Positions 1 through 64,000 are shown, counted from the stretch's first letter. The stretch: 64,000 bases of DNA from Pyrinomonadaceae bacterium (GCA_963715565.1 OY970256.1:2679836-2743835), one strand, 5' to 3'. A program made the numbers and translations. The notes: generated by a model not told the origin, from the letters alone.

Positions 1-782
1 AAGGGGAGTTGCATTTTTGCCATGCGCGCTTGCGCCGGAAGCACTACTTTATTTATTCCGCCAGCATCCCTGACCAGACCGGGTTTCAGAAAAAACGCAA
101 GCGTCGGAGACGGCGGAGGAGTCGTAGAAGCGGCGGTGTTCCTGTTGCCGGTCGCTACCAACGCATCCGGAGTAGTCTTTGAATTCTCGGTACGCACGGG
201 CGGCTGCTGTAGCTCATCCGTGCGACGGGTGTTTTGAGTCGTTTGCTCATCACGCGCAGGGCTGGAGTTCTGTTGCTGCGGCACAGTGGATGACGGCCCG
301 TTCTTTTGCGCCTCAAGGGGCGAGGGGCGCGGCGACTGCCGTATTCGGACGACGAGCCACGAGACGCCTATGATGATTAATAAAGCGGCAGCCACGAGCG
401 CGAAGCTTTGCATGGGGCTGCGCTTGAAATTGAATAAAGCAAGAAATCTCTTCCAGATGGAAGGCGGCTGCGGCTCGGCAAGCGGTTCAGGCGAAGCGGC
501 GGGGACCGCATTCGTCGTCACATACTTTTTTAGCGCCCTGGAAAACCTCACATCCTCGTGCCGCTCGGGCGCGGATAAAAAATAGCTCTCGAATCCCTCG
601 CGCTCGTCCAAAGGAAGCGCATCATAAACGTACTCGTCAATCAACTCTTCCTCGGCCAGAAGCAGTTGCTGGAAGTGCTGGTCGTCCGTAAAGAGCGATT
701 GTTCAACGCGCAGATGTTCCGGCTCGGGCAATTTGCCCAGTAAATACTTCCGTATAAGCTGCTCGTCTATATTCTGCTTCAT
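1..782 (-). CDS. putative anti-sigma factor / single-pass membrane regulator (C-terminus beyond window edge)
   Basis: The minus-strand frame is open from the ATG (complement of 780-782) to the window edge; it is missing from the ORF track only because no stop lies in the window. It reads MKQNIDEQLIRKYLLGKLPEPEHLRVEQSLF..., has one hydrophobic helix FALVAAALLIIIGVSWLVV, then a P/T/Q-rich tail. It lies ~70 nt downstream of the ECF sigma gene on the same strand. Confidence 0.45.
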   Translation of the reverse strand, partial: MKQNIDEQLIRKYLLGKLPEPEHLRVEQSLFTDDQHFQQLLLAEEELIDEYVYDALPLDEREGFESYFLSAPERHEDVRFSRALKKYVTTNAVPAASPEPLAEPQPPSIWKRFLALFNFKRSPMQSFALVAAALLIIIGVSWLVVRIRQSPRPSPLEAQKNGPSSTVPQQQNSSPARDEQTTQNTRRTDELQQPPVRTENSKTTPDALVATGNRNTAASTTPPPSPTLAFFLKPGLVRDAGGINKVVLPAQARMAKMQLP

Positions 783-853
783 TATCCTGCTGACTAACGA
801 AATTTCATTCAATCTCTAATATGATATTGTGGAAACGCTTGATACATTTCACG

Positions 854-1481: not shown

Positions 1482-4400
1482 TCACCTCCACTCTCCTTGG
1501 AGTACGAAGCCTGCCCAGTAATAGGGCGAGCGCCAGAGCTTTTGTGCACGAACTTCTTCCTGCGCAGCCTTCAAAGCTGCCGGTGGCGAGATACCTTCCT
1601 TCAAAATTTTCCGGTAAAAACGTTTCATCAAGTCGGCAGTGGCATCGTCGTCAACTTTCCACAGGCTGGCGACCACGCGAGACGTTCCGGCAGACATGAA
1701 ACCGCGCGTCAGGCTGATGATGCCTTCGCCTCTGACTTCTTTGCCCACTCCGGTTCGACAGGCACTCAAAACTACCATATCAACCGGCAAGCTCAAATTA
1801 TAAATATCCTGTAGCCGTAGGAAGCCGTTTTGTGAGCGCCCCTGCTCGTCAACCAGTGAGAGAACGATGCCGGAGAACTCCGGGTGCGAATCATTGAGCA
1901 CGCTGTGCGTCGCGAAATGCACTATTCGATAACGGCTCAGCTCGTTGCTCGTCGCTGTGCTGCGGTTGGCCTGAAAGCCGACGAGCATGGTGGCCTTGCC
2001 CGGCGCGGCCATCGACACGATTTCCTTCGCCTCGTCCAGAGAAGAACGCAGCCGTGGCAGTTGGTCGCCCGTCTCTCCCACATCTTTCAGGAGGCGGTCC
2101 ACAACCTCGGAACGCATGAGCTTTGCAGTTTCGGCGTTACCCGGTTTCCCGCTCTGCTGAACTCGCCTGTCACGGCTGTCAAAAACAGGGTCGGCCAGAA
2201 CGATGACCTCTTTCGGGGCGGGCTTGCGCGGCAACTCCCGCAACAGTGTAATCACCGAAGCCGATTGCTCATAAACTATCTCATGCTTATTTCCCAAGGT
2301 GACAGGCCCGCTATCTTCGCGGCTGTGATTGTAGCGAGCAAGCGCGCCGTCTTTGCCCTGCACGACGGGTTCGGGCAACGCGGCGAAAGGAATAAAGTGC
2401 AGGAGCCCGTCGGGAATGACCAGCAGCTTCTTGGTTCCGAGCTGCGCGGCAACCGGACCAACTATTTTATCGCTCAGCGCAGACGCGCTTTGCCAGTATT
2501 GCGCCTGCGCTTCTGCCAGACGCTTGCGATAATCCGTCTCCGTCAGCATGTCGCGAACCGGACGCGCGAGTTTCTCAATTTCCGCACGGCCCGGAAGCTG
2601 CGCTGCCGTGGCCGTGCGTCGCGTCACTACACACACGTAGCTGCGTTCACCGCCGAGGGCGTATTCAAGCATCACTGTATCGTCATCAAGCGATTGTTGA
2701 ATCTCTTTCAGGCTTAAGGGGCGGCCCTGCGCCGTGATGGCTGAAGCCGGATTCTGTTTTTTAATCCCCGCCTGCACGGCGTCATAGCGGGCCACGAGCT
2801 TGTTAAGATTAACCTCAACCGCGTCCGCGTCTGCTTTGAAGTTCTTACCGCGCAGGACCACCAGCTTTTCGGCGTTGTCATTTATTTGACGCTCAAGAGA
2901 GCGTTTTTCTTCGACGAGCGCCGCGCTTGCGCCCCCGTCGATTTGGACGCGCGCCTCGGCCAGCGTGTCCAGCAGGCTGCGCGCACGCGATTTCTCGTTC
3001 GCCAGTAGCGCAGCGGCCAGATGTTCTTCCGCGCCCGTGCGCCTGTACAACTGCATACGCACGTCTACGTCCAGCTCGTAGTAGTCCTGTTGCCTCGCAA
3101 GATAAGAGATGCGCAACTGCTGGCTCGTGACCCTCGTCCGTAGAGATTCGACAATGTCTACGGCCTTCTCTATCTTCTCGCGGGCATCGTCCAGATTATT
3201 ACGCGCGCGTGCGACGACCGCCAGACCATAAAATGTTTGCGCCTCTCCACGCCGCTCCGCCACTTGCTGCCAGAGCGGGAGCGCTTGCTGGTAACTGTCT
3301 GCGGCTTCCTGTAGGCGGCCCAGCGCCGTGTAAGTCTGGCCGAGCTTGGTGAAGACCAGAGCCTGCGTGCGCGGGTCTTGTAGCTGTTTGCTCGCGCTGA
3401 GCAGCGTGGCCTCGATTTCGCTCGCCTGCCGGTAACATTCAAGCGCCGACTGAAAATCTCCGAGCCTGTAGTAGGCCGCGCCCATCACGATGAGCGTGTA
3501 AGCACGTCCATGTTTTTCGTTCGTCTCAGTGTAGAGCTTCAGCGCCTGCTTGTAATTCTCCAGCGCTTGATTGTAATCGCCAAGGACGTTGTAGGCGTAA
3601 CCCATGTTGTTGAGTGAAACGGCGATGCCTCTAGGCGTCTTCAGGACTTCTTTTCTCAGGCGCAGCGATTCTTCAAACATCTTGAGGGCGCTTTGCCCGT
3701 CGCCAAGGTCGGCATAATACATGCCAAAGTTTTCGAGCGTCTGCGCCGTTCCATTCGGATTATCCTTGGCGAGCAAGAGCGCATCGCTGTAATGTTTGCG
3801 CGCCTCTTCGGACTCGCCCCAGGTGTCGTAAATCTTGCCTATGTTGTTGTGTGCGACGACGAGCTTGGCGGCGATATCTTTATTGTTGATGTCCAGACCC
3901 TGCCAGATTCGTAGCGCCTGCGTGTAGTAGTCCAGCGCCGTCTGCGATTGGCCCAGCTCATCAAGCGCGCCCGCGAGGTTGTTCAGCGTGTTGGCCTCCT
4001 GATAAGCATCACGCGCCTCGCGCCAGAGAGATAAAGCCTGCTCATAATAGCCTGCGGCCTGCGTCTGTTGTCTGGCCCCACGGCTATAGATGAGACCGAT
4101 GTTATTAAGGAGCTGGGCCTGTCCCCATTTATCGCCCGCGCCCTGGCGCAGCTTGAGCGCCACCTCATAATCGGGCAGCGCCTTGAGCGGGTCGCCCAAA
4201 TCTCTCTGCGCCGCTCCCCTTTCGTTGAGCACGTAAGCCTGACCCGCCGTGTCTCCAATCCTTGCCAGCAGAAGACGCGCCTGCTCAAAATTATCAAGCG
4301 CGTCCTGCAAAAAGTCCTTGCCCTTCCGGCGATACAGAGAGCCCAGATTCGCGCGCGTGTATGCTTCGCCTTGACGGACTTCCAGATTCTTCCAGAGAGG

Positions 4401-5015
4401 CAGAGCCTGGGTGTACAACTCAAGAGCTTTATCCAGATGTTCGCCCCCACGCGAAACCAGACCTTGCCCTTCCGTGAGCAGGCGCTCGGCGCGGGCGCGG
4501 TCTCTGTCCGCGGAGGTCGGCTCGCGCGGCTGTTCAAATTTAATCTGATATCTACCGGGCGGCGACCACTGATTCCCTGAGCCTATCTCCAACACGTAGT
4601 CGCCCGCCGCCTCTGCGATGGTCGAGACGAACTCCGGCCCGTACTTCCCGTTCGGGTTGTCGCTCTCCATGATTAACCGGCGTTGGGGGTCAAACAATTT
4701 GACTCTTAAATCTATTCCCTGCTGCTCGACCAGAACGTGTGCATACTGTCCGGGACCGACGGCTAGACGGTAGGCGTGCATCTCGCCGCCCGCACACTCT
4801 CTGTTGACTGTCTCACCGGGTTTGAGAAAGGGAGCGGCTGTGTTGTCCTGAACGGATTGCTCGGGCAGCGCGTAGGCGCTTGCCAATACCTGTTCGTAGC
4901 GGCCCGCGAAGGCGGTCTCAATCCAGCAAAGCTTTGCCGCGACCACCAGGAGTGAAGACAGGACGACGAGCCAGAGCCATCTCTGGCGTGTCGCAAAAGA
5001 GGATAGAAGTCTCAT
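1482..5015 (-). CDS. secreted/membrane-anchored TPR-repeat protein with C-terminal CHAT (caspase-like) domain
   Basis: 1177-aa ORF. N-terminal hydrophobic segment WLWLVVLSSLLVVAAKL, then a beta-sandwich-like segment and a long array of TPR-like repeats. The C-terminal CHAT fold has a His (VHFATHS) and Cys (VVLSACRTG) dyad. Confidence 0.85.
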   Translation of the reverse strand: MRLLSSFATRQRWLWLVVLSSLLVVAAKLCWIETAFAGRYEQVLASAYALPEQSVQDNTAAPFLKPGETVNRECAGGEMHAYRLAVGPGQYAHVLVEQQGIDLRVKLFDPQRRLIMESDNPNGKYGPEFVSTIAEAAGDYVLEIGSGNQWSPPGRYQIKFEQPREPTSADRDRARAERLLTEGQGLVSRGGEHLDKALELYTQALPLWKNLEVRQGEAYTRANLGSLYRRKGKDFLQDALDNFEQARLLLARIGDTAGQAYVLNERGAAQRDLGDPLKALPDYEVALKLRQGAGDKWGQAQLLNNIGLIYSRGARQQTQAAGYYEQALSLWREARDAYQEANTLNNLAGALDELGQSQTALDYYTQALRIWQGLDINNKDIAAKLVVAHNNIGKIYDTWGESEEARKHYSDALLLAKDNPNGTAQTLENFGMYYADLGDGQSALKMFEESLRLRKEVLKTPRGIAVSLNNMGYAYNVLGDYNQALENYKQALKLYTETNEKHGRAYTLIVMGAAYYRLGDFQSALECYRQASEIEATLLSASKQLQDPRTQALVFTKLGQTYTALGRLQEAADSYQQALPLWQQVAERRGEAQTFYGLAVVARARNNLDDAREKIEKAVDIVESLRTRVTSQQLRISYLARQQDYYELDVDVRMQLYRRTGAEEHLAAALLANEKSRARSLLDTLAEARVQIDGGASAALVEEKRSLERQINDNAEKLVVLRGKNFKADADAVEVNLNKLVARYDAVQAGIKKQNPASAITAQGRPLSLKEIQQSLDDDTVMLEYALGGERSYVCVVTRRTATAAQLPGRAEIEKLARPVRDMLTETDYRKRLAEAQAQYWQSASALSDKIVGPVAAQLGTKKLLVIPDGLLHFIPFAALPEPVVQGKDGALARYNHSREDSGPVTLGNKHEIVYEQSASVITLLRELPRKPAPKEVIVLADPVFDSRDRRVQQSGKPGNAETAKLMRSEVVDRLLKDVGETGDQLPRLRSSLDEAKEIVSMAAPGKATMLVGFQANRSTATSNELSRYRIVHFATHSVLNDSHPEFSGIVLSLVDEQGRSQNGFLRLQDIYNLSLPVDMVVLSACRTGVGKEVRGEGIISLTRGFMSAGTSRVVASLWKVDDDATADLMKRFYRKILKEGISPPAALKAAQEEVRAQKLWRSPYYWAGFVLQGEWR

Positions 5016-11207: not shown

Positions 11208-13121
11208 TTACACGATACGGCGGCGGTCGCCCGCGCGCTGCGTGATGCGCTCGCGGTCCAGATATTCCAGAAGCGGGATGGCGTACTTGCGCGTGACATT
11301 CGCCAAATCCTTAAAAGCCGCCACGTCTATCAAACGCTCCGGCTCGTGCTCGACGGCGTAGGCGCGCAAGTCTCGGACGAGGCGGTCGAGCGCCTCGCGA
11401 TGAAACAGAAGGTCAGGCGCGACGCGCACGAGGATGCCAGCGTCCAAAAGCAGTTGCAGAATTTTGCGCCCGTGCTCGGCTTCGGTCTTTGCCCCACGGG
11501 ATGCGCGCGCGTGCGCCTCTTCAAAGGAAGGAACTTCCAGCTCCGCCTCCCTGTAAATTTCTTCCAGGCGGTCGCGCAAAGAAGCGTCTTCCCCCGAAAG
11601 CTCAAGCGTGTGCGTCGCAGAGCGCACAATCTCTTTTTCGGAGACGAGCTTTTCATCACGCTCAAGCGCGTAGAGCGCGGCGCGAAAAATTTCCGGCTGG
11701 GCGTGTGCAAAGAGACGCTCGCGCAAGGTCTCGCGCGAGAGCCCGCGCGATAAGGGCTCGCGCCTATGATGAGCCATGACTTCTTCAAGCGCGGCTTGCG
11801 CCAGCGCGTCAAAGCTCGTGCGCGACAAATACACGCCCTCCGCATCCACGACCGCGCCGCTCGCACGCGCAGCGCGCAGAGCCTCTTCCAGAACTTCATC
11901 GCGCCAGCCCGTGCGCGCCAGTAAATCCGCGCGACGCAGGCTTGTCGAAGCCGCGACGAAGGCAGCGACCTGCGCCGCCCTGTCTCCGTTCATCAAATCA
12001 GAGAGAGCTGCGCGCGTTTCTCTTATCTCGCGCCCGCGATGTTTTGTCGCCAGTGGGTCCAGCACGCGCCCGCCCGCGATGGTGTGCGAAGGCGAATAAG
12101 AACGGATGATGAAATGCTCGCCCATGAGCGTGGCGACAGGCGTTTCCAGCCGCAACTGCGCAAAGCCCGCCTCGCCCGGAGCAATCTCGCCGCCTTCTTC
12201 CAGAACGCGCACACGCGCTAAAACTTCCGCAGCTCCAAGATGCACGCGCACGCGCGAGCGTGAACGCAAACCGCGCGGCGCGCTTTTTAAGACTTCGACG
12301 CGCGCGTCCATGATTTGCGAAGGACGCAGCCGACCCGTCTGCGCCAGCACCATCCCGCGCTCAAGCTGTCCTGTTTCGACGCCTCCCAGGTTAACAGCCG
12401 TGCGCTGGCCTGCCACGGCGCGCTCAACCGCCTGCCCGTGCACCTGTAGCCCACGCACGCGCACGCGACGCTCCAAGGGCAAAAGCTCCAGCTCGTCGCC
12501 CTCGCCGATTTCGCCCGCGACGAGTGTGCCCGTTACCACCGCGCCGAAGCCGCGCATGGTAAAGGCTCTATCCACGGGCAGCCGCGCCACCGTTTCCGAA
12601 AGACGAGCAGGCGCAGCTAGAGCCACTTCGCGCAAGCTCTCCTTTAACTCCGCGAGCCCCTCGCCCGTGCGCGAGCTGACGGACAGGATGGGCGCGTCTT
12701 CGAGAAATGAATTTTTGACCAGCTCCTCTGCCTCCGCGCGAACAAGCTGAAGCAGCTCCTCGTCAACCGCGTCCCGTTTAGTGATAACGACGAGGCCCGC
12801 CTGGACGCCTAGCAGGCGGCAGATATCAAAGTGCTCGCGTGTTTGCGGCATGACGCCTTCGTCCGCCGCGATGACGAGCGCCACCAGATCAATCCCGTGC
12901 GCGCCCGCCAGCATGTTCTTCACAAACCGCTCGTGGCCCGGCACGTCCACAAAGCCTACGCGCACGTCACGAAGATCAAGCTCTGCAAACCCTAGATCAA
13001 TCGTAATCCCGCGCCGCTTTTCTTCAGGCAGGCGATCCGCGTCCACGCCCGTCAGGGCGCGCACCAGAGCAGTTTTTCCGTGGTCTATGTGACCGGCTGT
13101 GCCGACGATGATTGAACGCAT
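11208..13121 (-). CDS. selB: selenocysteine-specific translation elongation factor SelB
   Basis: GTPase motifs [16 protein letters not shown] and TKRD, followed by long winged-helix-type C-terminal domains. Start taken at [11 protein letters not shown]; the 9 upstream codons of the track ORF are read from repeat family A. Confidence 0.9.
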
Positions 13122-13203
13122 AAAAGCAATGCAAAAGTCAAAATGCAAAATGCAGAGTTAAAGAAGGTCTTTTCTTTTCATTTTGCATTTTGCACTTTGC
13201 ATT
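13122..13203. repeat. unit-built hairpin, family A (TGCAAAR heptamers)
   Basis: AAAAGCAATGCAAAAGTCAAAATGCAAAATGCAG ... TCATTTTGCATTTTGCACTTTGCATT. Directly abuts the selB start codon. Confidence 0.85.
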
Positions 13204-53569: not shown

Positions 53570-56125
53570 TTATCTTATCGCGCGGCGCTCGTCCGTCGTG
53601 GAAGCTTGCGCGGGCTGCGTGGTCGTGACGATTGGCGCGCGATAGCCGCACTCTTCCCTTGCGCAGTGTAGGACCGTGCCCTCTTTCTTCGTGGTCTTCT
53701 CCAGAAGGAAGGGCGCTTTGCATTGGGGACAGGGTTCGGCAATGGGCTTGTCCCAGAAAACCGTGTCGCACTTAGGGTATTCCGAGCAGCCGTAGAACGC
53801 TTTGCCGCGCTTAGACTTTTTGACCACAATCTCGCCGCGACAACCCGCGCGCGAGCACGGCACGCCCGTCGTCTCGCGTTTAATATAGGTGCACTTCGGA
53901 TAGTTAGAGCACGAGACGAACTCGCCGAAGCGACCGTGACGCCGCACCAGATGCGCGCCGTCCACCGGACACTTCTCGTCAAGCGGCACGGCGGCGGGCG
54001 CAGCCTGACCGCTCTTCGCAATCTTGCGTATGTTGCGGCACTCCGGATAGCCCGTGCATCCCAGAAACTGTCCGAATCGCCCGCGCTTCAAAGCCATAGG
54101 CTTGCCGCACAACTCGCATTCCTCTTCCGTCTCGCCAGAGCCTTCCGCTTTGCTCTCCGCGCTTGCGCTCGAAGAGGCTGTCGCAGTTTCCGTTTCGCCG
54201 TTCGCCGCTGGACGTGCTATCTCGCGCGTCGTGCGACATTCGGGATAGTTCGAGCAGGCCAGAAATTGTCCGAAGCGCCCGAACTTGATGACCATCGCCG
54301 CGCCGCAGTTGTCGCACACCTCATTGGTCGGGATGGCCTGTTGTTTGGCCGCGCGCATCGTCGCTTCGGCGTTCTTCAAATCCTTTGCAAACTTTTCATA
54401 AAACTCGCGCAGCGCCTCGGTCCACGCGAGCTTGCCTTCTTCAATCTCGTCCAGCTCCTCTTCCATCCGCGCCGTGTAGGTCTCGTTAAAGAGATCGTCA
54501 AAGCTGGCGACTAGAAGATCGTTGACGGTTGTGCCGAGCGCCGTCGGATGAAAACGGCTCTCGACCTTTTCGACATACTCGCGGTCCAGAATCGTCGTCA
54601 TGATGGCGGCGTAGGTCGAAGGCCGACCGATGCCCTTCTCTTCCAGAGCCTTGACGAGCGTGGCTTCCGTGTAGCGCGGCGGCGGCTCCGTAAAATGCTG
54701 CTCGGGCTTCACGGAATTGAGCCGTAAGTCCTCGCCCTTTTCCACGACGGGCAAGGTGCGCTCGGCCTCTTCTTCCTCTTCCGTCTTTTCGTCGCGCCCC
54801 TCCTGATAAACTTTCAGGAAGCCGTCGAACTTCTGCACAGAGCCCGTAGCGCGAAACAGAAAACGCCCCGCCTCTATGTCAATCGTCGTCTGGTCAAAGA
54901 GCGCGGCCATCATCTGCGAAGCAACGAAGCGCTGCCAGATGAGACGATAAAGCTTCTGCTCTTCGCGGTTGAGATAATGAGCAACCGAGTCCGGCGTGCG
55001 CGTCACATCGGTCGGGCGTATGGCTTCGTGCGCGTCCTGCGCGCCCTTCTTCGAGCGATAGTGGACCGCCTTTTCCGGCAGGTAATTCGCGCCGTACTGC
55101 GTGCCTATAAAATCTCTGACTTCGCCCAGTGCCGTGTCCGACACGCGCGTCGAATCCGTACGCATGTAAGTGATAAGACCGACCGCGCCTTCCGCGCCAA
55201 GCTCCACGCCTTCGTAAAGCTTCTGCGCGAGCATCATCGTTTTCTTCACCGCAAAGCCTAATTTTCGCGAAGCCTCCTGCTGCAACTTCGAAGTCACAAA
55301 CGGCGGCACTGGATTGCGCTTGCGCTCTTTGGTCGAAACGTCCGCGACCCTGTAAGGCTGCTGGGCAGCTTCGCTGACAATCTCAGCGGCCTGCTCCTCG
55401 TTGCCAATCAGAATCTCGTTCTTCTTCAAGTCCTGATCGAAGTTGCCGGTCTTGACGGTCTGCTCACCTATCTTTAACAGTCGCGCGTCAAAGGCTGGCG
55501 GGAGCTTGGCAGAGAGATTGGCAATGATGGTCCAGTACTCGGTTTTGACGAAAGCTTCTATCTCGCGCTCGCGCTCGACGACCATGCGCAGCGCCACGGA
55601 TTGAACGCGGCCCGCGCTCAAACGGCCTCCGACCGTGCGGCACAAAAGCGGCGAGACCTTGTAGCCCACCAGACGGTCGAGCACGCGACGGGCCTGCTGC
55701 GCGTCCACAAGATGCTTGTCTATTTCCTTAGGCTCTTTGAAAGCATCCTGCACGGCGCGCTTAGTTATCTCGTTGAACATCACGCGATAGGAAGGTTTTT
55801 TGGGGCGCTTCGGCACTATCTCTTCCGCCAGGTGCTGGCAAATAGCTTCGCCTTCACGATCCGGGTCAGCCGCCAGATAAATGGCGTCCGCGTCTTTCGC
55901 GGCCTTCTTCAGCTCCGAGATGATCTTTCTGTTGTTGCGCTTTTTTGAATCGGGGATGATTTCGTAGGTCGGCTCGAAGTTGTGCTCTACGTCCACGCCC
56001 AATCCCTTCGACGGTAAATCCTTGATGTGGCCGATGGAGGCCATCACGCGATAATCGTTACCCAGATATTTATTAATCGTCTTCGCCTTGGCAGGCGATT
56101 CCACGATGACTAGATTCTTTCCCAT
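53570..56125 (-). CDS. topA: DNA topoisomerase I
   Basis: Toprim N-terminus LVIVESPAKAKTINKYLG, catalytic-core motifs, and four C-terminal CxxC...CxxC zinc ribbons. Confidence 0.95.
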   Translation of the reverse strand: MGKNLVIVESPAKAKTINKYLGNDYRVMASIGHIKDLPSKGLGVDVEHNFEPTYEIIPDSKKRNNRKIISELKKAAKDADAIYLAADPDREGEAICQHLAEEIVPKRPKKPSYRVMFNEITKRAVQDAFKEPKEIDKHLVDAQQARRVLDRLVGYKVSPLLCRTVGGRLSAGRVQSVALRMVVEREREIEAFVKTEYWTIIANLSAKLPPAFDARLLKIGEQTVKTGNFDQDLKKNEILIGNEEQAAEIVSEAAQQPYRVADVSTKERKRNPVPPFVTSKLQQEASRKLGFAVKKTMMLAQKLYEGVELGAEGAVGLITYMRTDSTRVSDTALGEVRDFIGTQYGANYLPEKAVHYRSKKGAQDAHEAIRPTDVTRTPDSVAHYLNREEQKLYRLIWQRFVASQMMAALFDQTTIDIEAGRFLFRATGSVQKFDGFLKVYQEGRDEKTEEEEEAERTLPVVEKGEDLRLNSVKPEQHFTEPPPRYTEATLVKALEEKGIGRPSTYAAIMTTILDREYVEKVESRFHPTALGTTVNDLLVASFDDLFNETYTARMEEELDEIEEGKLAWTEALREFYEKFAKDLKNAEATMRAAKQQAIPTNEVCDNCGAAMVIKFGRFGQFLACSNYPECRTTREIARPAANGETETATASSSASAESKAEGSGETEEECELCGKPMALKRGRFGQFLGCTGYPECRNIRKIAKSGQAAPAAVPLDEKCPVDGAHLVRRHGRFGEFVSCSNYPKCTYIKRETTGVPCSRAGCRGEIVVKKSKRGKAFYGCSEYPKCDTVFWDKPIAEPCPQCKAPFLLEKTTKKEGTVLHCAREECGYRAPIVTTTQPAQASTTDERRAIR

Positions 56126-56343: not shown

Positions 56344-57477
56344 TCACAGCTTTCTCACAAAACATTTACCGGGCAACTGGCGCACTAGCTCTCTCATTTC
56401 AAGCGCCAGCAGCGCGCTCATTAATTCCGGCAAAGCGAGCCCGGAAGCCTGCGCGAGCGCATCAATATGCACGCCTGCATCCACGGAAAGCAACTTCCAG
56501 ACGGCGTGCTCTGCGGTTGAGAGGTCGCCCGGCACAAGCTCAAGCTGTTGGCCCAGCGCGTCCTCGTCCGTCGTCTTTTTAGACTCGGGCGGCAAGAGCC
56601 GCGCAGCCACGTCGGGAGGCAACTCAGCCGCGACGTCCTGCCATTGCTGCACGAGTTTCGCGCCCGCGCCCTTGATGAGATAGTTCGTCCCGAAAGAGTT
56701 TCTAGAAGTGATGTTGCCCGGCACGGCAAACACTTCGCGTCCCTGTTCAAGAGCCAGACGCGCCGTTATCAAAGAGCCGCTCGATTCCGCCGCCTCTACA
56801 ATCACGACGCCGAGGCTCAAGCCGCTAATAACGCGATTGCGATACGGAAAGTTCTGCGGCGCGGGCGGCGTCTCCAATGGAAACTCGGAAACGAGCGCGC
56901 CGCCGTGCTCTAAAATCTCGTCCGCAAGCCGCCGGTGGTCGCGCGGGTAAACCTGGTCCAGCCCGGTTCCCATCACAGCCGCCGTGCGGCCTCCGGCTTC
57001 AATCGCGCCGCGATGCGCCGCCGCGTCAATCCCACGCGCAAGGCCCGAGATAATCGTCACGCCGCGTTCTGCCAGATCGCGCGCCAGCATAGTGGCAGCG
57101 TTCTGCCCGTAGGTGGAGGAGCGGCGCGAGCCTACAATCGCCACGCACGGCTCGTCCAGACACGCGGCCCACTCGCCCTTCACGTACAACGTAATCGGCG
57201 GGTCAAAGATCTCGCGCAGGAGCGCAGGGTACACACCGTCGTCCAACAGCAAGAGGTCCGCACCCAGAGAGCGCACGCGCAATATCTCTGCTGCGGCGCG
57301 CTCGAAGAGTTCGCGCGCCATGATGCTCTCGACCGCTTCCGGACGAAGACGCAAGGCTTCAAGCTCCATGCGCGTCGCACTGAAAACAGATTCGGCAGAG
57401 CCGAAACGTTCAAGGAGCTTGGTGGCTGCGCGCGGCCCCACGCCCGGCGTCATGTTGAGCGCAATCCATTCTTTCAT
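56344..57477 (-). CDS. dprA: DNA-processing protein DprA (Smf)
   Basis: GLARGIDAAAHRGAIEAGG Rossmann-like motif. Start taken at ATG 57477 (MKEWIALN). The TTG-initiated extension to 57552 runs through repeat sequence next to tRNA-Sec. Confidence 0.85.
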   Translation of the reverse strand: MKEWIALNMTPGVGPRAATKLLERFGSAESVFSATRMELEALRLRPEAVESIMARELFERAAAEILRVRSLGADLLLLDDGVYPALLREIFDPPITLYVKGEWAACLDEPCVAIVGSRRSSTYGQNAATMLARDLAERGVTIISGLARGIDAAAHRGAIEAGGRTAAVMGTGLDQVYPRDHRRLADEILEHGGALVSEFPLETPPAPQNFPYRNRVISGLSLGVVIVEAAESSGSLITARLALEQGREVFAVPGNITSRNSFGTNYLIKGAGAKLVQQWQDVAAELPPDVAARLLPPESKKTTDEDALGQQLELVPGDLSTAEHAVWKLLSVDAGVHIDALAQASGLALPELMSALLALEMRELVRQLPGKCFVRKL

Positions 57478-57550
57478 GATTTCAGACTTTCGCTTTTTGG
57501 ATTCAAGACAGGGTTCCGGATTGTGAGGCGCAATCCTTATCTCTTCAGAC

Positions 57551-57583
57551 AATCCAAAATCGAAAATCTAAAATCCAAAATCG
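57551..57583. repeat. tandem heptamers (AATCNAA x4.7) without a full partner arm
   Basis: AATCCAA AATCGAA AATCTAA AATCCAA AATCG lies immediately 3' of tRNA-Sec (as GATTTTN on the tRNA strand). The unit is related to family F. Confidence 0.8.
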
Positions 57584-57586
57584 TTT

Positions 57587-57685
57587 TGGCGGAGGCGTGT
57601 AGGAATCGAACCTACCCAAGCCTGCTCTCACAGGCTCACAGACGGTTTTGAAGACCGCGCCGTTCACCAGAACAGATGCGCCTCC
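57587..57685 (-). tRNA. selC: selenocysteine tRNA (anticodon UCA)
   Basis: 99 nt, hand-folded. Acceptor GGAGGCG/CGCCTCC followed by G-CCA, and a 6-bp D stem CTGTTC/GAACGG with 4-nt loop TGGT, which is the bacterial tRNA-Sec hallmark. Anticodon loop CTTCAAA. Long variable arm AGCCTG-TGAGAG-CAGGCT. T arm GTAGG-TTCGATT-CCTAC. Confidence 0.85.
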
Positions 57686-58068: not shown

Positions 58069-61000
58069 ATGCAAGACCGACACATCTTTATCTCACATAG
58101 CAGCCAGGACGACGAATTTGCCAAAGAGCTCCACGATGCTCTTGTGAGCTTCGGATTAACCGTTTGGGTTGATTCCCAAAACCTGCGCGGCGGAAACAAG
58201 CTCGCCATGGAAATTGACGCAGCCATAGAAGGAGCGCGCCAAGTCATCGCCGTGCTCAGTCCCAAGACAATTAACTCCTCCTGGGTGCGTACGGAGATTC
58301 AAAAGGCTTTAGAGGTTGAAGCAAACCGTCAGCATGAAGGCTACAGAGTGATTCCGCTCCTCCTGCCCGGAATTGAGCCCTCAGCTTTGCCTGCGTGGTT
58401 TGACAAAGAACCCGTGGGTATTACCGTCGAAATCAAAGTCGGCGGATTGATTGAAGCCATGCCGGACATTCTCGCAGCCCTGGGCGAGCGTCTGTCTACC
58501 GACCGTCAACCTGTTAAAGAAGTCGCTTCCAAACCCGTCGAAGAATTGACGCTCAAGCTGAATGATTTACAGATTGAAACAAAAGACGGTAAGCGCCGCG
58601 CCCGAGCTGTCGGTCAATTGACTTATGAGCCTTCAGACAATTCAACTCATAAACGAGTTGAGAGCAGACGCTACAGCTTCACCGCGCCGATAGGAATTAT
58701 CGAGACGGAAGATTTGCGCTGGTATCTGGAAGAATATTTTGTCTGGCCCATTGGAGTCTTCCGCGAACGCGCCGAACGCATCGAAGCCCAACTGCCCAAA
58801 TGGGGACAGGCTTTATACCAGTCGGCCTTCGCGCCGGAGGTCGCACATGAAGCTCTCAGGTCATGGCAACAAGCAGGCATGGATGGCGAACGTCGCTTCT
58901 CCGTCTTCGTAGAGGAAGAGTTGCCCGTCGGAGCAAGCCCGGAGGAACAGACTACCGCCAGCGAAGAGAAACAAGCTGCCGCCAGCGAGGCCGCGAGCCT
59001 CTTGCTTTCGCTGCCGTGGGAACTCCTGCACGACGGGCGCGGCTTTCTCTTTCACGGCAAACATCCGGTTCGCGTGCGTCGTCGCCTTCCAAACCGTCAC
59101 TCGCAAACCGTCAGGCCCACGCAACTGCCTATTCGCATCCTGCTCGTGAGCCCGCGTCCTGAAGAAGAGCTTCGCATAGGCTACATAGACCATCGCATCA
59201 GCGCCAAACCACTGGTTGAAGCAGTAGAGAGTTTAGGCGAACTGGCAAAGCTGACCTTACTCACTCCCCCCACCTTCCCCGCGCTCGAAGAAGCATTACA
59301 CAAGGCTGCCGAGGATGGCGTGCCTTTCGATGTCGTACACTTTGACGGCCACGGCGTCTACGACCACAGGGTCGGACTAGGCGGTCTGTGCTTTGAAGAC
59401 CCGAACGACACGGAGAAGTTAGAACAGCGCCGGATGCAGTTAATTCACGCCGAACGGCTGGCCGAGGTCATACGCGACCACAGCATCCCGCTCGTCTTCC
59501 TGGAAGCCTGTCAAACCGCGAAGACCGAAGAAGACCCCACCGCTTCGGTCGCCGCGAAACTTCTGGAAGAAGGCGTCAGCTCAGTCGTTGCGATGAGCCA
59601 CAGCGTGCTCGTCGAAACCGCGCATCGCTTCGTCAAAGCCTTCTATCAAGAGCTGGCCGAAGGAAGGCGCATCGGCACGGCCATGCTCGCAGGACAGCGC
59701 GAGCTTCATCGAGAAACCCTCAGGGGCAAGATGATGGGCGCAGGCGAGCTACACCTACAAGACTGGTTCGTCCCCGTCCTCTATCAGGAAGAACAAGACC
59801 CGCAATTAATCACCCGGTTGCAGTCCCAACAGGTACAGCAGCTTCAAGTCACACAACGCCACTTGAGCTTAGGCGCGTTGCCTCAGCCTCCACCCCACGA
59901 ATTTCAAGGACGCAGCCGCGAGCTGCTGGCCTTAGAGCGCCTGCTCTATAACGAGCCTTACGCGGTCGTGCGCGGTCAGGGCGGAGCGGGAAAGACCACG
60001 CTCGCAGTCGAGCTAGCACGCTGGCTCGTACGCCTGGGCCGCTTCCGCCGCGCAGCCTTCGTCAGCCTTGAACAGTATACCGACGCCCGCACCGTCCTCG
60101 ACCATCTAGGTCGCCAACTCCTGCCCAAAAGTGATAACTGGTCCGTCGCCCAGTTCCCCGACATGAAGCAGGCGCTCCAACCCATAGAGCGCGCACTCGC
60201 CGACCGTGCCACCATCATCGTCCTCGATAACATGGAAAGCGTCCTTCCAGACCACATAGCAAACCTGCCGTCAGGCACACAGCAACTTCAAGAGGAAGAG
60301 CTTCAACGACTCTTCCAACTCTGCCAACAGCTTCTCCAAGCTGACCCCGCCACGCGTATTCTCTTCACCAGCCGCGAGTCATTGCCCGCGCCCTTCGATA
60401 ACAGGCGCAGAGAAATCTCCCTCGGCCCATTGAGCCAGGAAGATGCCATCAAGCTCGTCGGCGAGGTCATGAAGCAAGAGGGCCTGACCCCCAAAGCGGA
60501 AGACCCCGGCGGCGACCCCAAAGAAATCACAGACCTCGTCGAAGCCGTCAATCGCCACGCCCGCGCCCTCGTCCTGCTCGCCCGTGAAGTTGCCCGTCGC
60601 GGAGTGCGAACGACCACCGAAAACCTACATCAACTGATGGCCGAACTCGACAGTAAGTACCCCGGCGACCGTGAGAACTCACTATACGCGAGCGTGGAGT
60701 TGTCGCTGCGGCGTCTGCCCCCGGAAGTGCGAGACCAGCTCAAGCCGCTGGCCGTCTTTCACGGCGGAGCGCACATACAGGTGTTCGATTACGTGTTGGG
60801 TATTGCTGAAGACGATGTGGAAACAGTTCCCGGTATATTCCGCCATCTGGTAGAAGTCGGCCTTGCTGAAGATATGGGGTATGGACACCTTGTGCTGGAC
60901 CCGGCCCTGCCGCCCTATCTGCTCAGGGAGTTGAGTGAAGAGGAGCAGGAAGAGGCGAGAGGACGATGGGCTGAAGGTATGAGATGGTTAACGAGCTTTC

Positions 61001-62487
61001 TCTATCAGCAGTTATTTAAGGATGCCGAATTATCCGCTCGATTGACGCTGCTGGAGTTGCCGAACCTGCTGGCGATGCTGCAGTGGATGCAGCAGCAGGA
61101 TGCGCCGGAAGAAGTTGTAGGGCTAGCGAGTAAGGTAGAAACACTGCTCGCCAATTTAGGCCGACCACAGGCGCTGGCAGAAGCGACCAGAGTGCGAGAG
61201 CAAGCGGCCAAGGGATTGAGTGAGTGGAGCCATGCTCGGTTCGTGACGGAAAACGAAAGCATCAACCGGATGTTGGACAGTGGTGCTCTGCCGTCAGCCT
61301 ACGCCGCAGCACAACAGCTTCTGCAACGAAGTTTGGCATCAGGCGAAGAGGCTTATCCAGAGGCAGCTTATGACCTCGCTTTTGCACATTGGAAGCTTGG
61401 GAGAGTGCTCAGCAGGGGAGGAGCAGCCGAAGAGGCGCTAATTCAACTGGCTGAGGTTCAGCGGCGGTTTCAGGCACTATCAGATGCAGGTGATACCGAT
61501 GCTGAACAGATGGTCTCGACAGCGATCACTGAGAGCGGCGGGTGCTTGAGAGCTTTAGGGCGATTAGATGCTGCTGCCGCAGCTTATCAGGAAGCTATCA
61601 GGCGTAGTGAGAAACTTAAGGATCGGAGAACTATAGCTGTCAGCAAAGGCAATCTCGGGACAGTCCGTATGTTGCAAGAGCGCTATGCTGAGGCACTGAA
61701 AATCTATACTGAAGCGCGAGATATCTTTGCAACCTTGGGAGAGCCAATCAGCGTCGCTACCACGTGGCATCAAATCGGGATGACACATAAAAATGCTGGG
61801 CAATATGAACAGGCAGAACGAGCCTACCGTCAATCTTTGGCTATCAGAGTCCAACAGAAGAACCTCTCTGGTGAGGCTAGTAGTATGGGTGAATTGGGTA
61901 ATCTTTATAGTTTAATGGGACGTCTGGAAGAGGCCGTGATCTGTTATCGTCAAGCAGCGGATATTCACGTCAATCTACAAGACCAAATGTATGAAGGATT
62001 CGACCGTAACAATCTGGCTATTACGCTCATCCAGCTGCAACGCTACGATGAAGCGCGCCGCGAGTTACTCCGTGCGATTGAGTGCAAGAAGCCCTACGGC
62101 CACGCGGCTCAACCGTGGACAACTTGGGCCATTCTGTATGATCTAGAGCAGACCACAGAAGATACAACGGCTGCAGCGCAGGCACGGCAGCAAGCCATCG
62201 AGAGCTATTTGGCTTATCGTCGCGCTGGTGGTCAGAGTACAACAAGCGGTGCGCAGTTTTGCGGGATGGCAGCACAAGCAATCGAGCAGGGACAGACGAC
62301 CGAGATGGAACAAGCCCTTGCCCAGATTGCGGGAGCAGATGTTCCGCCGTCAGCCAAAGTGCTTATCTCCAAGCTGCAATCCATCCTGCGTGGTGATCGC
62401 AATCCCGCTCTCCCCGCTGACCCGAATTTAGATTACTCGAATGCTGTGGAGTTACAACTGCTATTGGAAGAGTTAAGTGCGCGATGA
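58069..62487 (+). CDS. TIR - CHAT (caspase-like) - NB-ARC/STAND NTPase - TPR multidomain protein (candidate conflict/defense protein)
   Basis: 1472-aa ORF. TIR: HIFISHSSQDDEFAKEL...VIAVLSPKTINSSWVRTEIQ. CHAT: LPWELLHDG...VVHFDGHG...LVFLEACQT. P-loop VVRGQGGAGKTTLAVEL, Walker B TIIVLDNMES, RILFTSRE. The C-terminal ~400 aa are TPR-like repeats. Confidence 0.85.
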   Translation: MQDRHIFISHSSQDDEFAKELHDALVSFGLTVWVDSQNLRGGNKLAMEIDAAIEGARQVIAVLSPKTINSSWVRTEIQKALEVEANRQHEGYRVIPLLLPGIEPSALPAWFDKEPVGITVEIKVGGLIEAMPDILAALGERLSTDRQPVKEVASKPVEELTLKLNDLQIETKDGKRRARAVGQLTYEPSDNSTHKRVESRRYSFTAPIGIIETEDLRWYLEEYFVWPIGVFRERAERIEAQLPKWGQALYQSAFAPEVAHEALRSWQQAGMDGERRFSVFVEEELPVGASPEEQTTASEEKQAAASEAASLLLSLPWELLHDGRGFLFHGKHPVRVRRRLPNRHSQTVRPTQLPIRILLVSPRPEEELRIGYIDHRISAKPLVEAVESLGELAKLTLLTPPTFPALEEALHKAAEDGVPFDVVHFDGHGVYDHRVGLGGLCFEDPNDTEKLEQRRMQLIHAERLAEVIRDHSIPLVFLEACQTAKTEEDPTASVAAKLLEEGVSSVVAMSHSVLVETAHRFVKAFYQELAEGRRIGTAMLAGQRELHRETLRGKMMGAGELHLQDWFVPVLYQEEQDPQLITRLQSQQVQQLQVTQRHLSLGALPQPPPHEFQGRSRELLALERLLYNEPYAVVRGQGGAGKTTLAVELARWLVRLGRFRRAAFVSLEQYTDARTVLDHLGRQLLPKSDNWSVAQFPDMKQALQPIERALADRATIIVLDNMESVLPDHIANLPSGTQQLQEEELQRLFQLCQQLLQADPATRILFTSRESLPAPFDNRRREISLGPLSQEDAIKLVGEVMKQEGLTPKAEDPGGDPKEITDLVEAVNRHARALVLLAREVARRGVRTTTENLHQLMAELDSKYPGDRENSLYASVELSLRRLPPEVRDQLKPLAVFHGGAHIQVFDYVLGIAEDDVETVPGIFRHLVEVGLAEDMGYGHLVLDPALPPYLLRELSEEEQEEARGRWAEGMRWLTSFLYQQLFKDAELSARLTLLELPNLLAMLQWMQQQDAPEEVVGLASKVETLLANLGRPQALAEATRVREQAAKGLSEWSHARFVTENESINRMLDSGALPSAYAAAQQLLQRSLASGEEAYPEAAYDLAFAHWKLGRVLSRGGAAEEALIQLAEVQRRFQALSDAGDTDAEQMVSTAITESGGCLRALGRLDAAAAAYQEAIRRSEKLKDRRTIAVSKGNLGTVRMLQERYAEALKIYTEARDIFATLGEPISVATTWHQIGMTHKNAGQYEQAERAYRQSLAIRVQQKNLSGEASSMGELGNLYSLMGRLEEAVICYRQAADIHVNLQDQMYEGFDRNNLAITLIQLQRYDEARRELLRAIECKKPYGHAAQPWTTWAILYDLEQTTEDTTAAAQARQQAIESYLAYRRAGGQSTTSGAQFCGMAAQAIEQGQTTEMEQALAQIAGADVPPSAKVLISKLQSILRGDRNPALPADPNLDYSNAVELQLLLEELSAR

Positions 62488-62522: not shown

Positions 62523-62552
62523 TTGACTGGAAGGGCGAGGACTCGCTATTAT
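62523..62552 (+). promoter_or_regulatory. sigma-70-type promoter upstream of boxC
   Basis: TTGACT (62523-62528), 18-nt spacer, TATTAT (62547-62552). Confidence 0.5.
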
Positions 62553-62556
62553 GATT

Positions 62557-62574
62557 TTCGAACGGACGTTCGAA
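62557..62574. promoter_or_regulatory. 18-bp palindromic operator candidate overlapping the boxC transcription start region
   Basis: TTCGAACG-GA-CGTTCGAA has perfect 8-bp half-sites and starts 5 nt downstream of the -10 hexamer. Confidence 0.5.
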
Positions 62575-62599
62575 CGGGTTGGAAATTAGGGGATTGAGA

Positions 62600-64000
62600 A
62601 TGAAGACAATGGCTGTGGAGACGGGGAATTTGAAGGTTAATTTTGAAACGTCGCCGGGGGAGTACAGGCACTGGAAGCTGAAGCTGGACGGGGCGGTGGC
62701 GACGCTGTCGATGGATGTGCAGGAGGATGCGACGCTGGGCGATGGCTATAAGCTGAAGCTCAATTCTTATGATCTGGGTGTGGATATAGAGCTGGCGGAC
62801 GCTGTGCAGCGTTTGAGGTTCGAGCACCCGGAGGTTCGCGTGGTCGTCGTCAAGAGTCTCAAGCCTAGAATCTTCTGCGCGGGGGCAAACATTTATATGC
62901 TGGGCACTAGCCCGCACGCTTTTAAAGTCAATTTCTGTAAGTTCACAAACGAGACGCGGTGTGCGATTGAGGATGCGTCGCATCATTCCGGGCAGCGTTA
63001 TGTGGCGGCGCTGAATGGCACGGCTTCGGGCGGCGGTTATGAATTGGCAATCGCGTGCGATGAAATTTATCTGGTGGATGATGGCAATTCGGCTGTGTCG
63101 CTGCCGGAAGTTCCGTTGCTTGGCGTGTTGCCGGGCACGGGCGGGCTGACGCGTTTGGTGGACAAACGCAAGGTGCGGCGCGACCGTGCGGATGTGTTCT
63201 CTACGCTGGCCGAGGGCTTGAAGGCCAAGCGTGCTAAAGAGTGGGGGCTGATTGACGGTTATTTTCCGACGAGCAAGTTTGAAGATGGTATCGCGCACCG
63301 CCTTGACGAGATGGTCGAAGAAGACAAGACATCTACGACGAGCGCGGGTATCAAGCTCAATCCATTGGAAGTCGAAGCTACGGAAGCGGGGCGCGAGTAC
63401 AAGTACGTGAGCGTGCGTTTGAACCGCCAGAAGCGTTACGCGGATTTGACTGTGCGCGGTCCTGAAGTTGATTTGCCTACCACGCCTGAAGAGATAGAAA
63501 GGCTGGGCGATAGCTACTGGCCCTTGCGCGCGTTTCGAGAGTTGGATGATGCGCTCTTGCACCTGCGCGTTAACGAGTTGGAGATAGGTCTCGTCTGCCT
63601 GCGCACGGAAGGTGATGCGGAGCGTGTGCTGTCGGCTGATAAAACGCTGGTAGAGCATCGTGACCACTGGCTCGTGCGCGAAACGATTCTGCACATGGCG
63701 CGCGTGCTGCGCCGTCTTGATCTGACGGCCAAAAGCTTCTTTGCCATCATCGAGCCGGGAAGCTGCTTCGCAGGGAGTTTGCTTGAGCTGGCCTTGAGCG
63801 CAGACCGCACCTACATGCTCAACGACCCGGACCAGGAGGTCTTGATTGCTACGAGCGAGATGAACGCGGGCGCGCTTCCGATGAGCAACGGCCTGACGCG
63901 TCTTCAGTCGCGCTTTCTTGCAGAGCCTGAAAGAGCGAACGAAGTGCTCGCTCATGAAGGCGCGTTTGATACGGAAGAAGCGGAAAGTGTGGGCCTGGTG
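62600..64000 (+). CDS. boxC: benzoyl-CoA-dihydrodiol lyase BoxC (crotonase superfamily), 3' end beyond window
   Basis: Frame is open from ATG 62600 to the window edge, so it is absent from the ORF track. Translation reads ...YRHWKLKLDGAVATLSMDVQED...GYKLKLNSYDLGVDIELADAVQRLRFEHPEV...FCAGANIYML...VNFCKFTNETR...SLPEVPLLGVLPGTGGLTRL, which matches my memory of BoxC. Confidence 0.75.
   Translation, partial: MKTMAVETGNLKVNFETSPGEYRHWKLKLDGAVATLSMDVQEDATLGDGYKLKLNSYDLGVDIELADAVQRLRFEHPEVRVVVVKSLKPRIFCAGANIYMLGTSPHAFKVNFCKFTNETRCAIEDASHHSGQRYVAALNGTASGGGYELAIACDEIYLVDDGNSAVSLPEVPLLGVLPGTGGLTRLVDKRKVRRDRADVFSTLAEGLKAKRAKEWGLIDGYFPTSKFEDGIAHRLDEMVEEDKTSTTSAGIKLNPLEVEATEAGREYKYVSVRLNRQKRYADLTVRGPEVDLPTTPEEIERLGDSYWPLRAFRELDDALLHLRVNELEIGLVCLRTEGDAERVLSADKTLVEHRDHWLVRETILHMARVLRRLDLTAKSFFAIIEPGSCFAGSLLELALSADRTYMLNDPDQEVLIATSEMNAGALPMSNGLTRLQSRFLAEPERANEVLAHEGAFDTEEAESVGLV

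Follow-up and report, generated by a model that had tools for sequence, protein, structure and literature searches.

How one bacterial protein could place two different enzymes under the control of a single switch is the question raised by a gene in a 64,000-nucleotide stretch of DNA from a Pyrinomonadaceae bacterium (GCA_963715565.1 OY970256.1:2679836-2743835), referred to below as the window. The gene is a complete open reading frame (ORF) that encodes a TIR domain, a beta-hairpin/helical module, a CHAT protease, an NB-ARC-type STAND NTPase and a TPR-like sensor in one chain of 1472 residues, and the product is identical to a protein already present in the protein database (P0001). The original prediction described this protein as a candidate defence system with an unusual pair of effectors and asked whether the protease processes or releases the TIR module. 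The answer favoured here, at a probability of roughly 0.55, is that the protein is a single-chain switch resembling the NLRs and the apoptosome that drives two parallel enzymatic outputs. The family most likely triggers cell death upon sensing a conserved ligand.

Based on what is typical of STAND proteins, the resting protein would be an inactive, ADP-bound monomer. The C-terminal TPR solenoid would bind a conserved protein or peptide ligand, with a phage protein being the most likely candidate, and the NB-ARC-type NTPase (K642, D720, R769, H940) would then exchange nucleotide and oligomerise. Oligomerisation would cluster the N-terminal modules, turning on two independent enzymes by induced proximity. 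The first would be the CHAT protease (H428/C481), comparable to caspase-9 on Apaf-1, CED-3 on CED-4 and SAVED-CHAT filaments, and the second would be the TIR domain acting as an NAD+ hydrolase (E76), comparable to plant TNL resistosomes, SARM1, SPARTA and TIR-SAVED. Proteolysis and loss of NAD+ would together stop growth or kill the cell.

Domain architecture, active sites and folds

The ORF and its domains are arranged as follows, with residue numbers referring to the 1472-residue protein and confidence in the models given as the predicted local distance difference test (pLDDT).

58069..62487, plus strand: complete ORF of 4419 nucleotides, ATG start, 1472 residues and stop codon
58069..58479, plus strand: TIR domain, residues 1-137 (Pfam TIR_2, phmmer, Foldseek); E76 at nucleotides 58294-58296
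58480..58998, plus strand: family-specific beta-hairpin/helical module, residues 138-310 (AlphaFold secondary structure and pLDDT)
58999..59823, plus strand: CHAT (caspase-fold, clan CD) protease domain, residues 311-585 (Pfam, family profile, Foldseek); H428 at nucleotides 59350-59352, C481 at nucleotides 59509-59511
59899..60933, plus strand: STAND NTPase of the AP-ATPase/NB-ARC type, residues 611-955 (Pfam, motifs, Foldseek)
60934..62484, plus strand: TPR-like alpha-solenoid sensor of about 24 helices, residues 956-1472 (AlphaFold model, Pfam, Foldseek, phmmer)

The predicted four-domain architecture with intact catalytic and ATPase residues is confirmed by Pfam, by sequence motifs and by conservation in 137 full-length relatives. 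In the Pfam scan, TIR_2 covers residues 6-101 (E=7e-24), CHAT covers residues 311-550 (E=4.5e-24), and AAA_16, AAA_22 and NB-ARC cover residues 611-756, while TPR_12 (E=2e-25) and many other TPR models match residues 1120-1400. The NB-ARC model scores 30.5 bits against a cut-off of 23.5, placing the NTPase in the AP-ATPase/NB-ARC clade; the score of the NACHT model (PF05729) is 19.4 bits, below its cut-off of 26.7, and the protein is consequently not a bNACHT. The domains were located as originally described, with two corrections to their borders: the sensor starts near residue 956 and not at 1090, and residues 138-310 form a conserved module to which the Pfam scan gave no match. In the AlphaFold model this module consists of a short linker, a long beta-hairpin (157-187), three helices (210-268) that contain the invariant motif LRWYLEEY..WP, and an acidic linker of low confidence (283-300). 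The module is kept in all TIR-less relatives and is therefore part of the CHAT core; to all appearances, this CHAT clade carries it as an N-terminal extension not described before.

All five residue numbers that had been assigned to active sites (E76, H428, C481, K642 and D720) are correct. In the translation, E76 is found in SSWVRTEIQ, H428 in HFDGHG and C481 in LEACQ; K642 lies in the Walker A motif GQGGAGKTT (636-644) and D720 in the Walker B motif IIVLDN (716-721). The hhGRExE motif is represented by FQGRSRE (residues 612-618) N-terminal to Walker A, and further STAND motifs are a sensor-I-like TSR (R769), LGPLS and the winged-helix histidine H940 (GYGHLVLDP). Among the 137 relatives, E76, K642 and D720 are each conserved in every protein, H428 in 135 and C481 in 134. 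The protein therefore has the TIR fold with a catalytic Glu in an SxW...E motif that is expected of a TIR enzyme, and the His-Cys dyad in H(F)xGHG and xxAC motifs that is expected of a CHAT protease.

Comparison with characterised proteins gives a consistent picture for each domain. The TIR domain is matched to AbTir and BtTir by phmmer, with E76 pairing with the Glu of the AbTir WTNYEL motif, and its nearest relatives are NAD-consuming effector TIRs (SAVED-TIR, SPARTA TIR-APAZ, AbTir, Cat1), with ThsB models scoring lower. A purely structural, adaptor role for the TIR domain was rejected in view of the retention of the Glu in 137/137 close and 47/48 distant TIR-containing relatives. For the CHAT domain, the family profile matches SAVED-CHAT (8tl0) with E=6e-6, pairing HFDGHG with HFIGHG and LEAC with LNAC; the family profile is needed for this, as a single-sequence phmmer search of the PDB with the CHAT segment alone gave no match.

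Folds were examined in two AlphaFold models, each built on 50-sequence alignments and covering residues 1-600 (pLDDT 76) and 571-1472 (pLDDT 86.8, with the sensor mostly above 90), which were compared with the PDB by Foldseek. The TIR fold, with matches to AbTir, RUN1, SARM1 and the SPARTA TIR, and the CHAT fold, with matches to SAVED-CHAT 8tl0, the CHAT anti-sigma factor DdvA (8rot) and separase, are thus supported by structure as well as by hidden Markov models (HMMs). The STAND region has the NBD-helical-winged-helix fold and is closest to the STAND-TPR protein 6mfv (E=3.4e-14), followed by CED-4 (E=1.1e-8), Apaf-1 (E=1e-8) and plant CNL resistosomes, and the sensor matches the TPRs of LGN/Pins and KLC by both Foldseek and phmmer. 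These STAND and TPR matches agree with the NLR/Avs-like layout that had been proposed. The loop directly after C481 (residues 481-492) is of low confidence in the model; it sits where the L2 loop lies in caspases, a loop that becomes ordered when those enzymes are activated. At the other end of the protein, the sensor closes with a conserved helix, LDYxxAVELQLLLEEL, and this extreme C-terminal helix, DPNLDYSNAVELQLLLEEL (residues ~1447-1472, nucleotides 62407-62484), ranks with the most highly conserved segments of the sensor. It could serve as an autoinhibitory latch or as a docking element.

Natural variants of the family

The relation of the two enzymes to one another was addressed using natural variants. 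Residues 140-1100 were searched against 1.84 billion 50%-identity representatives, yielding 1196 matches at E≤1e-30, and the best 150 of these were aligned to the family HMM. Sixty-nine are full length, defined as containing the beta-hairpin module, CHAT, NTPase and TPR, and these fall into two classes.

TIR-containing relatives: 48 of 69; TIR Glu kept in 47; His/Cys dyad intact in 40 and broken in 8
TIR-less relatives: 21 of 69; TIR Glu not applicable; His/Cys dyad intact in 16 and broken in 5

The CHAT dyad is accordingly broken in 13 of the 69 proteins (confirmed by eye for P0149, P0173 and P0240). The Walker motifs never vary, with K642 and D720 present wherever these positions are covered in the 150 representatives. 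Random truncation is an unlikely explanation, since coverage of the TIR domain has a bimodal distribution in the set. All of the TIR-less proteins begin with a Met shortly before the hairpin, and for one locus (L030) the TIR-less state was verified on a genome contig that includes 10 kb of DNA upstream.

When mapped onto a rough neighbour-joining tree of the core region, the TIR state requires at least 16 changes and the dyad state at least nine, and the states are scattered over the tree. Two independent outputs are favoured because TIR loss and broken dyads are distributed in this manner and the Walker motifs are invariant. Since the TIR domain and the CHAT dyad have been lost independently and repeatedly, each enzyme is independently dispensable in the family, and the suggestion that the protease processes or releases the TIR domain is disfavoured as an obligate mechanism.

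The variants also indicate which parts of the protein are constant. The hairpin-CHAT-STAND-TPR unit is the core, and the NAD- or nucleotide-degrading domain is a modular add-on that can be swapped or multiplied. In P0236, which is TIR-less, a PNP_UDP_1 domain is found at the C-terminus (E=4.6e-24); the protein at locus L004 (9986-15840) has three TIR domains in tandem, which a frameshift may divide; and the 1832-residue protein at locus L006 (8885-14383) carries an AAA_35 domain N-terminal to its TIR domain.

Distribution, genomic context and the nature of the trigger

A search of the protein database with the 1472-residue protein gave 2380 matches at E≤1e-10. The best 120 clusters are ~1444-1832 residues long and 61-81% identical to the query, nearly all with full-length coverage, and all 120 are annotated with TIR, CHAT, P-loop and TPR. 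With at least 120 clusters of the same architecture, and with TIR present in 48 of the 69 full-length 50%-identity representatives, the fusion of two effectors can no longer be called unusual. Its component pairings are also already in print: CHAT and TIR occur in one protein in a Thiohalocapsa target of a diversity-generating retroelement (DGR; PMC10907252), and caspase-like N-termini occur on bacterial Apaf-1 orthologues as a direct fusion of protease and NTPase (PMC13581612). Named sources among the clusters are Pyrinomonadaceae, Blastocatellia, other Acidobacteriota and KSB1, and the proteins constitute a large family of soil bacteria.

In data containing one genome per species, 34 loci of homologues were recovered. 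These are mostly from Acidobacteriota, among them Thermoanaerobaculia and Holophagales; the family as a whole also has members in at least five further phyla. The loci outside the Acidobacteriota include those of the isolate actinomycete Paractinoplanes durhamensis (55% identity), Verrucomicrobiota (57%), Nitrospiraceae (61%) and Bacteroidota (49%), and homologues are also carried by Poribacteria and Victivallales. One acidobacterial chromosome has two paralogues (L014 and L020) that are 68% identical and located 40 kb apart.

The prediction of a solitary gene holds, as no neighbouring gene is conserved across the 34 loci (the largest non-self cluster is found in 4/35 loci, in close relatives only); sensor, switch and effectors are therefore all in one protein. 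The 241 ORFs neighbouring the homologues at 33 loci are a housekeeping mix that includes Mur ligases, histidine and Ser/Thr kinases, sigma factors and tRNA synthetases, with sporadic defence-like matches to one type II methyltransferase, LeoA/BC-like and BrxH-like proteins, and with one transposase. Phage sequences gave no match to the protein, and the plasmid matches are distant CHAT-STAND relatives with 27-31% identity (cyanobacteria, Streptomyces, Acidisarcina), none of them close. Given the absence of conserved neighbours and of phage or close plasmid matches, the gene is best viewed as a self-contained unit in varying chromosomal contexts. The check for a defence or mobile context gave no positive signal, PADLOC matches among the 241 neighbouring ORFs and in the window being sporadic or generic; consequently, the defence role that was originally put forward is argued from domain homology.

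Several points weigh against a cell-death switch with two parallel outputs that senses phage. Ligand sensing, oligomerisation, the two enzyme activities, cell death and an antiviral role are ascribed to the protein by analogy with the families named above. Five relatives (P0149, P0165, P0173, P0254 and P0240, the last with an unannotated N-terminal region of ~315 residues) have neither a TIR domain nor an intact dyad and keep the Walker motifs and a full sensor, so that enzyme output is not universal in the family; these proteins may work alongside enzyme-bearing paralogues as sensors, helpers or decoys. For some metagenomic sequences, the TIR-less call may reflect a wrongly assigned start codon, and the independence of the two enzymes is deduced from other family members and not from the 1472-residue protein. 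In the 137 relatives, conservation is even along the protein, with an identity to the query of 0.47-0.81 in blocks of 50 residues, and the sensor (0.54-0.69) is as conserved as the enzymatic domains, with relatives being 50-80% identical across phyla. Such conservation is atypical of fast-evolving defence sensors and is equally compatible with an endogenous ligand. No association with a defence island, prophage, plasmid or phage was found at the homologue loci or in the window, where the immediate neighbours are tRNA-SeC, the dprA-topA pair and an enoyl-CoA hydratase gene. Finally, no AVAST model is among the PADLOC matches listed, which comprise at least 25 families, all at the domain level of TIR, CHAT or TPR.

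A serious rival reading, although a rather unlikely one, is that the protein is not antiviral and is instead a conserved STAND protein for surveillance, regulated cell death or regulation, responding to stress, self-damage, kin or toxins, or carrying out regulatory proteolysis in the manner of DdvA. Many STAND clades are known to have non-defence functions (PMC13581612). Such a role would fit the housekeeping-type contexts free of enrichment in defence genes or mobile elements, the strong and even conservation of the sensor, the high identity of the whole protein across classes and phyla, the paralogous copies in one genome, and the structural match of the CHAT domain to DdvA. However, the PADLOC models are biased against Acidobacteriota, so that the missing island signals are weak evidence, and horizontal transfer, as is seen for defence genes, is suggested by the patchy occurrence across phyla and the lack of synteny. 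Moreover, interchangeable effectors such as a TIR with its catalytic Glu, a CHAT domain with its active site and PNP are typical of the repertoire of conflict systems (PMC7159879, PMC8195603).

The genes that surround the ORF in the window are listed below.

57587-57685, minus strand: tRNA-SeC (Rfam 70.8 bits; ARAGORN anticodon TCA), 384 nucleotides upstream of the ORF, between the ORF and dprA
56344-57552, minus strand: dprA, upstream neighbour
53570-56125, minus strand: topA, upstream neighbour
about 62600-64000, plus strand: enoyl-CoA hydratase/isomerase-family gene (ECH_1, E=3.1e-27), about 112 nucleotides downstream of the ORF, running off the end of the window

An Arg-rich minus-strand ORF of 468 residues (62549-63955) is an antisense artefact of the enoyl-CoA hydratase-family gene, which is the real gene in this region. 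Insertion of a genomic island at tRNA-SeC was considered and rejected: the tRNA has the ORF on its 5' side, a search for direct repeats bracketing the ORF found none, att-like repeats included, and homologues are not recurrently located next to tRNA genes. The GC content of the ORF is the same as that of its flanks. The window contains no recognisable defence system, its PADLOC matches being generic ATPases and a match of dprA to the DprA-like ShosA model. The latter does not make dprA a Shosta-like partner, as it forms the canonical pair with topA and is not conserved beside homologues.

Two further observations concern other genes of the window. A second, unrelated CHAT protein of 1177 residues is encoded at 1485-5015 (minus strand); its TPR repeats precede a CHAT domain at the C-terminus (Pfam E=1.4e-61). 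Directly downstream of it are two small ORFs, 857-1426 and 3-812 (both minus strand), which by their N-terminal sequences look like an extracytoplasmic function (ECF) sigma factor and an anti-sigma partner, an arrangement that recalls DdvS and the CHAT anti-sigma factor DdvA. The window that contains tRNA-SeC also contains an ORF (11211-13148, minus strand) that resembles a SelB-type elongation factor by its N-terminal sequence.

Known systems and possible coupling of the two enzymes

Proteins in which a STAND NTPase links N-terminal effectors to a C-terminal repeat sensor are an established class (Avs literature; analyses of the Aravind group, PMC7159879, PMC8195603). No description or functional test of the TIR-CHAT-NB-ARC-TPR fusion was found in the searchable literature, nor is it represented as a system by any PADLOC or NCBIfam model; the architecture is abundant in nature yet uncharacterised, and its parts and logic are familiar. 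Like Avs/AVAST and other bacterial NLR-like receptors, the protein has an N-terminal effector region, a central STAND NTPase and a TPR-like sensor encoded by a single gene, and ligand-induced oligomerisation would be expected here as well. In contrast to Avs/AVAST, the NTPase is of the AP-ATPase/NB-ARC type, there are two tandem enzymatic domains instead of one, and no defence-island context was found for the gene; the check for the defence-island or mobile association that marks Avs gave sporadic or generic PADLOC matches, in a test that is weak for under-studied phyla. Rousset et al. (10.1101/2024.10.24.620036) list TIR domains and caspase-like proteases as Avs effector types and give their roles in Avs as unknown. 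Membership tests led to rejection of bNACHT, Avs1-5 and the EACC1-caspase system as homes for this protein; for the last, a two-gene system that pairs the caspase with an adjacent TM protein, EACC1 (Kaur et al. 2020), the NCBIfam model caspase_w_EACC1 scores 16.5 bits against a cut-off of 140, and there is no conserved neighbour.

Similarities to eukaryotic receptors are found in both halves of the protein. Apaf-1 and CED-4 share the NB-ARC NTPase fold together with a caspase-fold protease that is expected to fire by clustering, whereas the sensor here is a TPR solenoid and not a WD40 propeller, the protease is of the CHAT type, and a TIR domain and the beta-hairpin/helical module are present in addition. 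Plant TIR-NB-ARC-LRR receptors (RPP1, ROQ1, RUN1) likewise have an NB-ARC scaffold that is preceded by a TIR domain with a catalytic Glu; RUN1 and ROQ1 match the TIR domain by sequence and fold, and clustering should create the NADase site in the same way. Unlike these receptors, the 1472-residue protein has a CHAT block of 450 residues between TIR and NB-ARC and a TPR sensor in place of the LRR, and the relation is convergent or modular, not orthologous.

Among prokaryotic proteases, SAVED-CHAT of type III-B CRISPR (8tl0) is the closest solved CHAT by profile and fold, and its protease is activated within an oligomer or filament. The activators of SAVED-CHAT and Csx29/Craspase are SAVED or Cas7-11 and not a STAND NTPase, and these systems have dedicated substrate genes nearby, whereas none is conserved here. 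The Thiohalocapsa DGR-2 target shares CHAT and TIR in one polypeptide and is likewise a putative conflict system (PMC10907252); it is set apart by its description, in which the sensor is a DGR-diversified C-type lectin (CLec) and no STAND-TPR is described. Type IV Thoeris uses the same pair of domains, TIR and a caspase-fold protease, for cell-death immunity, but as a two-gene operon linked by N7-cyclic ADP-ribose (N7-cADPR) and without STAND or TPR, whereas everything is fused here. Judged by domain order and neighbouring genes, the separation of a short TIR protein from a ThsE protein with its own C-terminal sensor, characteristic of type IV Thoeris, is absent.

The two enzymes might also depend on each other. 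As a rule for the family, both coupled cascades considered below are disfavoured by the pattern of independent loss. Coupling could instead be confined to members that keep both enzymes, such as the 1472-residue protein, where linkers cut by CHAT would gate the TIR NADase or a TIR product would gate the protease; this would make the protein a single-chain hybrid of apoptosome and TIR resistosome, with enzyme-less relatives acting as sensor or helper partners like those of paired plant NLRs. This arrangement is unlikely.

A cascade in which the protease acts first is doubtful. Here, the oligomerised CHAT domain would cut its own linker (residues ~138-156 or ~283-300), either releasing or licensing the TIR NADase or freeing TIR and CHAT together. 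The two linkers that flank the beta-hairpin module are suited to such cleavage in being poorly conserved (identity of 0.47-0.54 per 50 residues) and of low confidence (pLDDT ~56 at 141-150 and <50 at 287-294), and no separate substrate gene is conserved beside the gene. CHAT-family proteases are in addition usually site-specific, as separase, Csx29 and SAVED-CHAT illustrate (see also the Discussion of 10.1101/2024.10.24.620036). However, the eight TIR-containing relatives of 48 that have lost the CHAT dyad keep the TIR Glu, and 16 of the 21 TIR-less relatives keep the dyad, so that, viewed across the family, each enzyme is independent of the other. Clustering is generally required by TIR NADases, as in TNLs, SARM1 and SPARTA, and would be undone by release from the scaffold.

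In the reverse order, a cADPR-type signal made by the TIR domain would activate CHAT in cis or in neighbouring molecules, which would amount to type IV Thoeris fused into a single chain. For type IV Thoeris it is proven that a TIR and caspase-like pair works in this way, with the ThsE protease being activated by N7-cADPR (10.1101/2024.10.24.620036), and the same two domain types occur here. This order is nevertheless very unlikely for the 1472-residue protein: the family includes both TIR-less relatives whose dyad is intact and relatives with an intact TIR whose dyad is dead, Pfam places the NTPase directly after CHAT with no counterpart of the proposed ligand-binding C-terminal domain of ThsE, the STAND scaffold already provides a proximity mechanism, and the nearest matches of the TIR domain are NAD-depleting effector TIRs, with ThsB models scoring lower.

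If the protein is indeed a single-chain switch with two parallel outputs, one prokaryotic Apaf-1-like scaffold would carry both a caspase-fold protease and a TIR NADase, the two hallmark death enzymes of innate immunity in eukaryotes, and a compact system would be available for understanding how one oligomerisation event drives two outputs. The TIR-less, protease-dead, PNP-swapped and triple-TIR variants are informative natural forms that make the question of dual output directly testable. Whether the trigger comes from phage or is endogenous is a real question, given that a defence-island signal is lacking and that the sensor is unusually conserved. Acidobacteriota dominate soils and are nearly absent from experimental work on bacterial immunity, to which this protein would add an abundant, unstudied NLR-like family from that phylum.

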